In this document: piece after piece, positions 2,175 through 4,670 of the stretch
How positions within the stretch are numbered: the first letter of the stretch is position 1
How the letters are laid out: each line of letters begins with the position of its first letter
Assembly (NCBI GenBank): GCA_963840145.1
Contig: CAWIXR010000005.1
Location: forward strand, 94,094 to 158,093
DNA length: 64,000 nt
Source of the DNA: an uncultured Chloroflexia bacterium
GTDB lineage: Bacteria > Chloroflexota > Limnocylindria > QHBO01
Direction of reading: 5' to 3'
Made by a program: the position numbers and the translations under genes
The notes under the pieces: model-generated
Databases searched by the model: none
Seen by the model: the letters and a program-made list of their open reading frames with translations, nothing else
What the model was told of the DNA's origin: nothing

Positions 2175-3194
2175 GTGCCCGCGGACGAGATCGGCCGCTC
2201 GCGTCAGAATGCGGTGGTGACCTCTCCTGCCCGGCGGCCGCCGTCGACGGTCGCCGTCGTCGCCGCGCTCCTCACCGTCTACATCCTGTGGGGCTCGACC
2301 TACCTCGGCATCGCGGTGATGATCGAGACGATGCCGCCGCTGCTGGCGGCAGGCGCACGGTACGGCTCGGCCGGGCTGATCATGCTCGCGGTGCTGGTCG
2401 CCCACGCCCGACTGCGGCCGGGGGCATCCCTGGAGCGGCCGACCGCGATCCAGTGGCGCACCGCGGCGATTGTCGGGACGCTCTTGCTGCTCGGTGGCAA
2501 CGGCGGGGTCGTCCTCGGCGAGCTCTTCATCCCGACCGGCGTCGCCGCGGTCCTCGTCGCCACCGTGCCGATCTGGCTGGCGGTGTTCGACGCGGCCATC
2601 ACCCGCCGGCGGCCGGGTGGCCTCGTCATCGGCGGGCTCGTGGCCGGCATCGCCGGCGTCGCGGTGCTGCTCGTGCCCTTCGAGGGCTTCGGCAAGCTCG
2701 ACCCGCTCGGCATCGCGCTCGTGCTCGGCGGCGCGATCGCGTGGTCGCTCGGCTCGCTGTACGCCCGCTACAACCCGCTGCCGCGATCGGCACTGCTCGG
2801 CACCGGCATGGAGATGCTGCTCGGCGGCCTCGCGCTGATCGTCGGCGGCGTGCTGCTCGGCGAGGTCGGACGGACCGATGTCGCCGAGTTCTCGTCGGCA
2901 TCGGTCATCGCCTTCTTCTACCTCGTCGTCTTCGGCTCGATCGTGGCGTTCACCGCCTACACCTGGCTCCTCGCCAACGTGTCCGTCTCGACGGTGGCGA
3001 CGTACGCCTACGTCAACCCGATCGTGGCCGTGGCCCTCGGCGCCATCTTCTACGCGGAGCCGATCACGCCGCGCACCGTCATCGCGGCGGTCCTGATCAT
3101 CGGCGCGGTGGTGGCGATGGTCTCCGGACGGCCGCGCGAGACCGAGGAGCCGCGGCGGATCGCCGAGGGCGCAATCGAGCCCGACCGGGCCTGA
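2175..3194 (+). CDS. EamA/DMT family transporter
   Basis: 10-TM hydrophobic profile with duplicated EamA halves. The true start may be an internal GTG. Confidence 0.7.
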
Positions 3195-3228
3195 CCGATG
3201 GCACCGATCCTGCGCGTCCGCGCAGACC

Positions 3229-3514
3229 GATGACGGAGCCGATCGTCTCCTGCAGCCCCACCGAGTCCGGCTGGCATTGCACGGTGACGCTCGGGTCCGA
3301 TCCTGGCGCGACCGTCCACGAGGTGAGCGTCGACCGCGAGGTCCTCGACGACCTCGCGCCGGGCGCCACGCCCGAGGAGCTCGTCCGCGTGTCGTTCGCG
3401 TTCCTGCTGGAGCGCGAGCCGCGCGAGTCGATCATGCGGCAGTTCGAGCTCCCGATCATCGGCCGCTTCTTCGGCGACTACCGCGACGAGATGCTCCGCC
3501 GCATGCTCCCCTAG
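3229..3514 (+). CDS. hypothetical small protein
   Basis: ATG-initiated 95-aa ORF with coding-like composition. No recognisable domain. Confidence 0.4.
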
Positions 3515-3996
3515 GCCGGCGGCCGCGGGTGCATCGCCCGCGACCCGGCGACCCGCACCCGGTCGAAGCCCGACGGGAAGACGACGAGGTTCCAGGCATC
3601 GCCGAGCGCCGCGGACGGCACGATCAGCCCGTCGGCGCCCAGCTCCCGGGCCTTCCCCGACAGGCCCTGGGCCCGCGACCGCGCCCCGGTCAGCTGCCCA
3701 TCGGTGATTCCGAGCTGCTCGGCCAGCCCGGGACGCCGGAGATCGACGACGGCGAGGCCGTCGACCTCGATCCGCCACAGGCGACGGCGCTCGTCGGCCG
3801 GATCGATCGCCCCGCGCGTCGCCGTCTGCCACTCGGCCCAGACCGTCGCCGGCTCGAGCGACGCGTAGAGCGGCCACGGTTCGCCGGGCCGGTGGTAGCG
3901 CCCCTCGGTCGGCGCCGGCCGGTCTGGCGGCGTGGCCGGGATGTCGACGCCGGTCTGGCGGTGCGCCCGTCCGCTGAAGCGGCTGATCGGGTTCAG
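3511..3996 (-). CDS. RES-domain toxin (MbcT/ParT-like NAD+-targeting toxin) with a non-canonical start
   Basis: My minus-strand translation reads ...ISRFSGRAHRQTG...GRYHRPGEPWPLYASLEPATVWAEW...LIVPSAALGDAWNLVVFP..., matching the RES conserved R/Y/E/S segments. The stop overlaps the plus-strand gene at 3511. The first ~120 codons contain no ATG/GTG/TTG. A CTG at 3994-3996 forms a CTGA overlap with the antitoxin stop. Confidence 0.65.
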   Translation of the reverse strand: MNPISRFSGRAHRQTGVDIPATPPDRPAPTEGRYHRPGEPWPLYASLEPATVWAEWQTATRGAIDPADERRRLWRIEVDGLAVVDLRRPGLAEQLGITDGQLTGARSRAQGLSGKARELGADGLIVPSAALGDAWNLVVFPSGFDRVRVAGSRAMHPRPPA

Positions 3997-4319
3997 ACGT
4001 AGTCCCCAACGACGTACGACTCGGCGGCCGCGCGAACGGCGTCGAAGTCGCCATCGGCCAGGCGCTCGACCGGGCGAGCCCAGCGCAGGTGGACGTTCGG
4101 GGCCTCCAGCCAGGCGCGCTTGGCGGCATCGGTCATGCCGCGGCCGAGAAGGTCGAGGATCGCCTGGAGCTCGCCGATCCGGTCCCGATAGCGGGACTGC
4201 GGGGCCTGCCCGCTGCGCCAGCGCTCGGCGGTGCGGACGTTTGCGCCGGTCGCCCGCGCGATGAAGCGCGCCGGGAAGAGGCGCACGAGGCGCGGTGACG
4301 GTGCGGCACGAACGGTCAT
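3993..4319 (-). CDS. Xre-family antitoxin with DUF2384 (MbcA/ParS-like) toxin-binding domain
   Basis: 108 aa. The C-terminal ...AWLEAPNVHLRWARPVERLADGDFDAVRAAAES matches the DUF2384 consensus. It lies immediately upstream of the RES ORF. Confidence 0.7.
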   Translation of the reverse strand: MTVRAAPSPRLVRLFPARFIARATGANVRTAERWRSGQAPQSRYRDRIGELQAILDLLGRGMTDAAKRAWLEAPNVHLRWARPVERLADGDFDAVRAAAESYVVGDYV

Positions 4320-4331
4320 GGCGATAGGGTA

Positions 4332-4362
4332 ATGCCGGTAGAAATGCCGGTCAAGATGCCGG
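4332..4362. repeat. three direct ATGCCGG (minus strand CCGGCAT) repeats at 12-bp periodicity upstream of the TA operon
   Basis: ATGCCGG at 4332-38, 4344-50 and 4356-62. On the minus strand they sit 13-45 nt upstream of the antitoxin start codon (4319). Confidence 0.4.
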
Positions 4363-4670
4363 GATCACGGCGCGCCCCGACGTGGATAATGCCTGCCGTG
4401 AGCGAAGTGATGGTCCGGACCTACGCCGGCAAGAACCAGATGGACGCCGCGCGGCTGTACGCGGAGGACGCCCCAAACCTCGCGACCGAGGGCTGGGTCC
4501 CGGTCACCCAGGAATGGGTCGCCGACGAGTGGTCGTTCGCGGCGGTCGCCGTGGCGGCCCTGCTCGTCCTCGTCGGCATCGGGATCATCCTGCTGGCGGC
4601 GATGGCCGTCATCAAGCCGACGCGGACGCTCCTGGTCACGTATCGGCGGGAGACCGCGGCGGCGGCCTGA
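4332..4670 (+). CDS. hypothetical C-terminally membrane-anchored protein
   Basis: ORF with a C-terminal TM helix. The N-terminus as drawn overlaps the repeat array, so the true start is probably an internal ATG (~4389 or 4410). Confidence 0.4.
   Translation: MPVEMPVKMPGSRRAPTWIMPAVSEVMVRTYAGKNQMDAARLYAEDAPNLATEGWVPVTQEWVADEWSFAAVAVAALLVLVGIGIILLAAMAVIKPTRTLLVTYRRETAAAA

Follow-up and report, generated by a model that had tools for sequence, protein, structure and literature searches.

The stretch analyzed here, a window of 64,000 nucleotides from contig CAWIXR010000005.1 of an uncultured Chloroflexia bacterium (Limnocylindria), carries on its minus strand a chromosomal two-gene locus which, judged by sequence, is a RES/Xre type II toxin-antitoxin (TA) pair similar to MbcTA of Mycobacterium tuberculosis. 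The antitoxin gene comes first and the toxin gene second. In detail, the antitoxin gene of the MbcA/Xre/ParS type (3993..4319) encodes 108 amino acids, starts with ATG and ends with GTC TGA, and the gene of the MbcT-like toxin with its RES domain (3511..3996) comprises 161 sense codons followed by a TAG at 3513-3511. Both genes meet in a CTGA junction (3993..3996), in which a CTG at 3996-3994, the proposed CUG start of the toxin, overlaps the UGA stop of the antitoxin at 3995-3993. According to the listing of open reading frames (ORFs), the toxin frame contains no ATG, GTG or TTG before codon 126 of 161, a GTG at 3619..3621 that opens the listed ORF 3511..3621; in the 5' direction the frame stays open up to 4350, and a canonical start is missing there too. 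On the structural model this GTG lies too late for a functional toxin, as R33, Y44, E55 and the greater part of the fold are encoded upstream of it. The original prediction had described a RES ORF of 161 codons at 3511-3996 on the minus strand without ATG, GTG or TTG until far inside the domain, and a CTG at 3994-3996 that forms CTGA with the antitoxin stop. Coordinates and description hold, and the junction can be read directly in the letters of the window.

The assignment of the pair, which had been proposed as RES-Xre(DUF2384), was borne out for both proteins. The toxin matches the Pfam family RES (PF08808) over residues 21-150 with 56 bits against a cutoff of 23.2, and a profile of 21 homologues finds MbcT of M. 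tuberculosis with E = 9.7e-7. The AlphaFold2 model of the toxin has a mean predicted local distance difference test score (pLDDT) of 93.3 and a predicted template modelling score (pTM) of 0.89. Using Foldseek, the best solved structure is MbcT (6FKG, template modelling (TM) score 0.79, E = 1.6e-10), and matches 1-12 are RES toxins without exception. Across 21 sequences, R33, Y44, E55 and S128 do not vary; from knowledge of the family we take R33, E55 and S128, together with the tyrosine, to be the catalytic R-E-S residues. Over the whole toxin the ratio of nonsynonymous to synonymous substitution rates (dN/dS) is 0.31. MbcT is an NAD+ phosphorylase, and the NCBI product name of the toxin homologues gives the same activity. 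For the antitoxin, the single sequence reaches 23.4 bits with Xre_MbcA_ParS_C (PF09722, formerly DUF2384), slightly below the cutoff of 24.5; this family is matched by 23 of 25 orthologues at E <= 0.01, and a profile of the 25 orthologues aligns nearly over the full length (residues 21-105) with MbcA (PDB 6FKG chain C, E = 4.6e-10). In NCBIfam the toxin has no match, and the matches of the antitoxin are weak and below threshold. Toxin activity and its neutralization by the antitoxin are thus predicted from these similarities.

The decisive observation is the conservation of the junction. A protein search yielded 232 toxin homologues, which, where named, belong to Candidatus Limnocylindria or Chloroflexota, and the DNA of 156 related loci was fetched from GTDB species representatives (metagenome-assembled genomes, MAGs, of Limnocylindria/Chloroflexota) and from JGI soil metagenomes. 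These loci stem from assemblies that several projects made independently; MFD MAGs, SMAG soil MAGs and JGI metagenomes are among them. Junctions were counted in loci with at least 40% amino acid identity (40-88%) in which the region is present, which are 115 loci and 111 after removal of duplicates. All 111 unique loci (115/115 before removal) have the antitoxin stop TGA, a C in front of it and the resulting CTG in the frame of the toxin. A comparison of the start codon between orthologous loci had been suggested as a check, and it revealed no canonical codon at this position in any of them (0/111). The last antitoxin codon is GTC in 64, ACC in 30, GCC in 13, ATC in three loci and AGC in one, so the residue varies, with C as the third base throughout.

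How unusual this is can be seen in codon alignments of these loci. Among 114 four-fold-degenerate codon columns the junction is the sole column with an invariant third position (1.00), whereas in the other columns the commonest third base mostly lies at about 0.4-0.8 and never exceeds 0.92 away from the junction. Second in constraint are two columns directly 5' of the junction, the codons GTC (0.94) and GGG (0.91). The pooled synonymous divergence (dS) of the 77 sequences with at least 55% identity is about 0.9. An A, G or T in place of the junction C would produce ATGA, GTGA or TTGA and thereby an ordinary overlapping start, and in the case of GTC, the commonest last codon, a change of the third base is silent in the antitoxin protein. 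Furthermore, the antitoxin stop is TGA in 111/111 loci, whereas the stop of the toxin itself is TGA in 75, TAG in 27 and TAA in four. As TAG or TAA would destroy the CTG, the whole triplet is kept and not merely a base that prevents a start. Taken as a comparison of sequences, this identifies the CTGA overlap as a selected trait of the family and not as an error. It extends over a Limnocylindria-type clade with two subfamilies (42-50% and 55-88% identity), to which the design is specific as far as sequence comparison reaches: relatives with 30-35% identity, mostly Actinomycetota MAGs (Solirubrobacterales, Acidimicrobiales and others), have ordinary ATG, GTG or TTG starts just 3' of the antitoxin stop.

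The neighborhood of the locus is partly shared as well. An ORF of about 96 amino acids and an EamA-family transporter gene are convergent to the toxin both in the window (2175-3514, plus strand) and in locus L158 (731-1134), which belongs to the Chloroflexota MAG GCA_030852905.1. This shared synteny suggests that the locus is vertically inherited and chromosomal rather than mobile.

A second line of evidence comes from the N-terminus of the toxin. Residues 4-16 form the first beta-strand in the AlphaFold2 model (pLDDT about 94), and residues 5-17, which are encoded wholly 3' of the antitoxin stop, are under purifying selection with a dN/dS of 0.21. Therefore, translation must begin no later than residue 4. 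Between the CTG and a conserved RQT motif lie 6 to 25 codons, with 13 different lengths, and the CTG stays in frame and overlaps the antitoxin stop throughout. In 96 of 106 complete loci there is no ATG, GTG or TTG between the CTG and the first strand. Codon 4, which is ATC in the window, is not conserved in the 106 loci (CTC 35, GTC 28, ATC 21, CTG 15, GTG 4, GTT 2, GCG 1). A linker that is 3-13 codons longer after the CTG is found in L015, L013, L016, L025, L026, L030 and L032 and in the group with 42-50% identity (L037-L051, L121-L137); ACC is frequent there as the last antitoxin codon, and CTGA and the frame are kept. We also looked at the codon usage of this region: GTG accounts for 22% of the valine codons in toxin codons 2-30 and for 37% in the remainder, a trend too weak to build an argument of GTG avoidance on, and this line was dropped.

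Public annotation of the toxin family is inconsistent in the choice of the start codon. The annotated lengths of the homologues (P0001-P0120) cluster at 104, 110-112, 140, 151-153 and 161 amino acids, from which it is evident that the gene callers disagreed on the start. NCBI annotation lets one orthologue start at the CTG (P0001, from locus L003) and another at the ATC (P0006, from L158), and other gene callers choose an internal GTG or ATG, with products of 104-153 amino acids that lack the first beta-strand or more. This is a practical annotation problem, as most database entries are N-terminally truncated through the first beta-strand or further.

Upstream of the antitoxin we identified a putative promoter with a -35-like hexamer TTGACC (4349..4354, minus strand), which belongs to a pattern conserved upstream of the orthologues, and a -10-like hexamer TACCCT (4326..4331), which ends 6 nucleotides before the antitoxin ATG (4319). 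A consensus scan for promoters and terminators between 3300 and 4600 called nothing, and the -10 element matches TATAAT at only 3 of 6 positions; the promoter could be recognized only because it is conserved across loci. Of 93 related loci (upstream regions of L001-L134), 83 show the pattern TTGACN-17/18 nt-TAnnnT-6/7 nt-ATG/GTG, with a spacer of 17 nucleotides in the window. The gap between the -10 element and the start codon is 6 nucleotides in 74 loci and 7 in eight, which together are 82 of the 83 promoter matches. A -10 element only 6 nucleotides away from the ATG leaves no room for a leader or a Shine-Dalgarno (SD) sequence, so the antitoxin is probably translated from a leaderless or near-leaderless mRNA. 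Three direct repeats (A/C)CCGGCAT with a period of 12 nucleotides (4363-4356, 4351-4344 and 4339-4332, together 4332..4363 on the minus strand) overlap the promoter, and CCGGCA or CCGTCA occurs two to four times within 60 nucleotides upstream in 59 of 93 loci. It is plausible that these repeats are a candidate operator for the helix-turn-helix (HTH)/DNA-binding part of the antitoxin.

In front of the junction, the last codons of the antitoxin contain a GGGGA motif (4003..4007, minus strand) 6 nucleotides 5' of the CTG. For its Gly codon, 98 of 101 sequences use GGG or GGA (third base G in 92, A in six, T in two and C in one), and the codon before it has C as third base in 94%. The duplex of this region with the 16S tail CACCUCCUU has a median energy of -5.7 kcal/mol, compared to -2.6 kcal/mol in control windows. 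The idea of a strong SD sequence at the junction was downgraded to an SD-like motif, as this energy is only modest. RNAalifold predicted in 22 sequences a hairpin of 7 bp at the junction, in which CGuCUGAA (3999-3992) pairs with UUCAGCG (3978-3972, Phe-Ser-Gly codons) with a total of -7.65 kcal/mol. Its pairs are invariant or changed on one side only and compensatory changes do not occur, so covariation says nothing either way and the hairpin was not used as evidence.

We assume that toxin synthesis is initiated at the CUG and coupled to termination of the antitoxin, which would hold the toxin well below the antitoxin; we assign this reading a probability of about 0.78. Transcription of the operon would yield a leaderless mRNA with the antitoxin AUG at its 5' end, and a ribosome that finishes the antitoxin at the UGA, or alternatively a 30S subunit which the modest GGGGA motif attracts, would initiate at the overlapping CUG with the initiator tRNA. 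As the CUG is a poor start, synthesis of the toxin would stay far below that of the antitoxin and would at the same time be tied to it. Selection would keep the start weak, since every substitution of the C leads to one of the three ordinary overlapping starts. This is in line with reporter measurements in E. coli, in which CUG gives 1-2% of AUG, versus 10-100% for AUG, GUG and UUG (bioRxiv 10.1101/063800), with termination-reinitiation at 4-nt overlaps as demonstrated in bacteria and archaea (PMC6728339), and with a review according to which some toxins stay below their antitoxins through non-canonical starts or poor ribosome-binding sites (PMC10643148). Moreover, a Rhs toxin of Salmonella is made at a very low level from a CTG (PMC7043789).

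Several points weigh against this interpretation. Initiation at the CUG has been deduced by comparing sequences of hosts that are uncultured. The conserved C alone would indicate no more than selection against a canonical start at the junction, and it is the invariant TGA and the conserved frame, beyond the invariant C, which argue that the CTG itself is used. On these three features the original prediction of a CTG start gains support. In 10 of the 106 complete loci a canonical codon appears sporadically and at varying positions shortly after the CTG and could serve instead, and L157, a locus that was fetched separately, has an ATG eight codons past the CTG, which is still in frame there. The SD-like motif is modest, as 17% of the control windows are equally strong and the motif also encodes a conserved Gly-Asp. 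Furthermore, the loci share descent and are partly syntenic, so that the locus counts overstate the number of independent events.

Other explanations for the missing start codon have to be weighed against this evidence. That the toxin has lost its start codon in this genome by a sequencing error, a recent mutation or pseudogenization, as the original prediction had left open, would be compatible with the bare lack of ATG, GTG and TTG and with nothing else: the same CTGA stands in 111/111 unique loci from independent assemblies of several projects, purifying selection acts on the toxin (dN/dS 0.31, with dS about 0.9), and R33, Y44, E55 and S128, residues of the catalytic type, do not vary. We give such a lesion virtually no credence. 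It is also very unlikely that CTG serves as a routine start codon in this lineage and that the toxin is nothing special. CTGA junctions between coding frames are indeed frequent in the window and make up 5 of 13 four-nucleotide junction candidates, but the four others (3191+, 4667+, 5436+ and 43093-) all have an in-frame ATG 1-12 codons 3' of the CTG, one of them in a TGATG overlap, and are ordinary junctions. True 4-nt overlaps elsewhere in the window use ATGA (three), GTGA (four) or TTGA (one), and for the antitoxin itself all 83 scored loci have ATG or GTG as the start. CTG initiation is no general habit of this genome, as far as a window of 64 kb can show.

An initiation slightly downstream of the junction, at the ATC of codon 4 in this genome and at sporadic GTG, TTG or ATG codons of the linker in some lineages, would leave most of the N-terminus intact. 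It is the choice of NCBI for P0006, in E. coli AUC and CUG are similarly weak (bioRxiv 10.1101/063800), and the canonical linker codons of the 10 loci and of L157 mentioned above would fit. However, only 21 of 106 loci have ATC as codon 4, and none of the downstream candidates is conserved, in contrast to the CTG, which is invariant and in frame despite 13 linker lengths. Neither the invariant C nor the invariant TGA would be explained; we regard a downstream start as improbable. A further possibility is that an antitoxin-toxin fusion is the only form of the toxin, produced by a -1 frameshift or by suppression of the stop together with a shift, and that the C is kept merely to avoid free toxin. 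Relative to the antitoxin, the toxin lies in the -1 frame, which is open 5' of the junction in many loci, and a frameshifted uPPE2-PPE2 product was observed at an AUGA overlap in reporters of M. tuberculosis (PMC11260477). Nevertheless, the conserved sequence GTC GGG GAC TAC GTC TGA contains no slippery heptamer of the type X XXY YYZ, its GGGG run would favor a +1 instead of a -1 slip, and the room for a shift is narrow. A TGA in the toxin frame lies three codons before the CTG in L022 and L134, which leaves almost no room, and in four loci the nearest upstream stop of the toxin frame leaves 8 codons. As the invariant TGA (111/111) would remain unexplained too, the chance that the fusion is the only product seems very small to us; a minor fusion product like that at the AUGA overlap of M. 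tuberculosis may be formed in addition to the toxin started at the CUG.

The coupled CUG start can be extended to a more far-reaching idea, which we consider unlikely and put forward as speculation. The operon might be a hard-wired stoichiometry device, in which 70S ribosomes load the leaderless mRNA at the antitoxin AUG and the toxin is made only if the same ribosome re-initiates on the CUG within the stop, so that the locus would act as a sensor of the translation state. In that case the toxin would be capped at a small fraction of the antitoxin. The ratio of toxin to antitoxin would respond directly to the factors for the policing of weak starts and for ribosome recycling (initiation factor 3, IF3, and ribosome recycling factor, RRF), and the system would not rely on proteolysis of the antitoxin but read out how the translation machinery is doing.

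Independent of this idea, bacteria very rarely have conserved CUG start codons, and the junction resembles a natural experiment: a normal start would arise with three of the four bases, for the most frequent last codon (GTC) by a silent change, and none of the three is found in 111 diverged loci. This is direct comparative evidence for selection in favor of a weak start on a toxin gene. Furthermore, the locus is an easily engineered system for studying CUG in termination-reinitiation and the control of the toxin:antitoxin ratio by the start codon.

Among known systems, MbcT-MbcA of M. tuberculosis (Rv1989c-Rv1990c, PDB 6FKG) is the closest in fold, in the profiles of both proteins and in the antitoxin-first gene order. 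The sequence identity is only about 23-24%, and the toxin described here has a shorter N-terminus, as profile position 6 aligns with MbcT residue 22. In contrast to MbcT-MbcA, the toxin has the conserved CTG within the CTGA overlap as its putative start, and its activity is predicted from sequence and fold. The Xre-RES pair of Pseudomonas putida (6GW6, 9R35), ParST (6D0H/6D0I), NatRT (8QNL) and VPA0770/0769 (8GUG) belong to the same toxin fold class (Foldseek E 3.6e-8 to 2e-4) but are structurally less similar than MbcT, with TM scores of 0.56-0.70. They share the two-gene logic, in which the antitoxin is of the Xre type and binds to promoter DNA, as stated in the title of 9R35. Literature searches returned no description of a non-canonical toxin start in these solved RES-Xre pairs.

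With regard to the start codon, a parallel is infC, the gene of IF3, whose non-canonical AUU start is conserved for regulation and keeps or tunes translation at a low level. The codon and the gene are different from the case described here, an overlap with an upstream stop is missing, and the logic there is autoregulation of IF3 and not a toxin:antitoxin ratio. The orphan Rhs-CT toxin of Salmonella (PMC7043789) is comparable in that a toxin with a cognate immunity protein or antitoxin is made at a low level from a CTG. It differs by its position as an internal start with an internal promoter in a large rhs gene and by the lack of a stop/start overlap, and it was described in a single species and is not known to be conserved throughout a clade. 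Termination-reinitiation (TeRe) coupling at ATGA or TGATG (Huber et al., 2019, PMC6728339) has in common with this locus the 4-nt overlap of stop and start and, less certainly in view of the modest pairing, an SD-like motif in the upstream gene, and by analogy the dependence of the downstream gene on upstream translation would be expected here likewise. The TeRe cases use canonical starts, and CTGA or CUGA is absent from the text of that paper, whereas here a CUG seems to be selectively maintained. In literature searches we found no description of a CTG/CUGA or otherwise non-canonical start in RES/Xre or other type II TA systems. Systems and control of this kind are both known, but a conserved CUGA with signs that stronger starts are selected against appears to be new.

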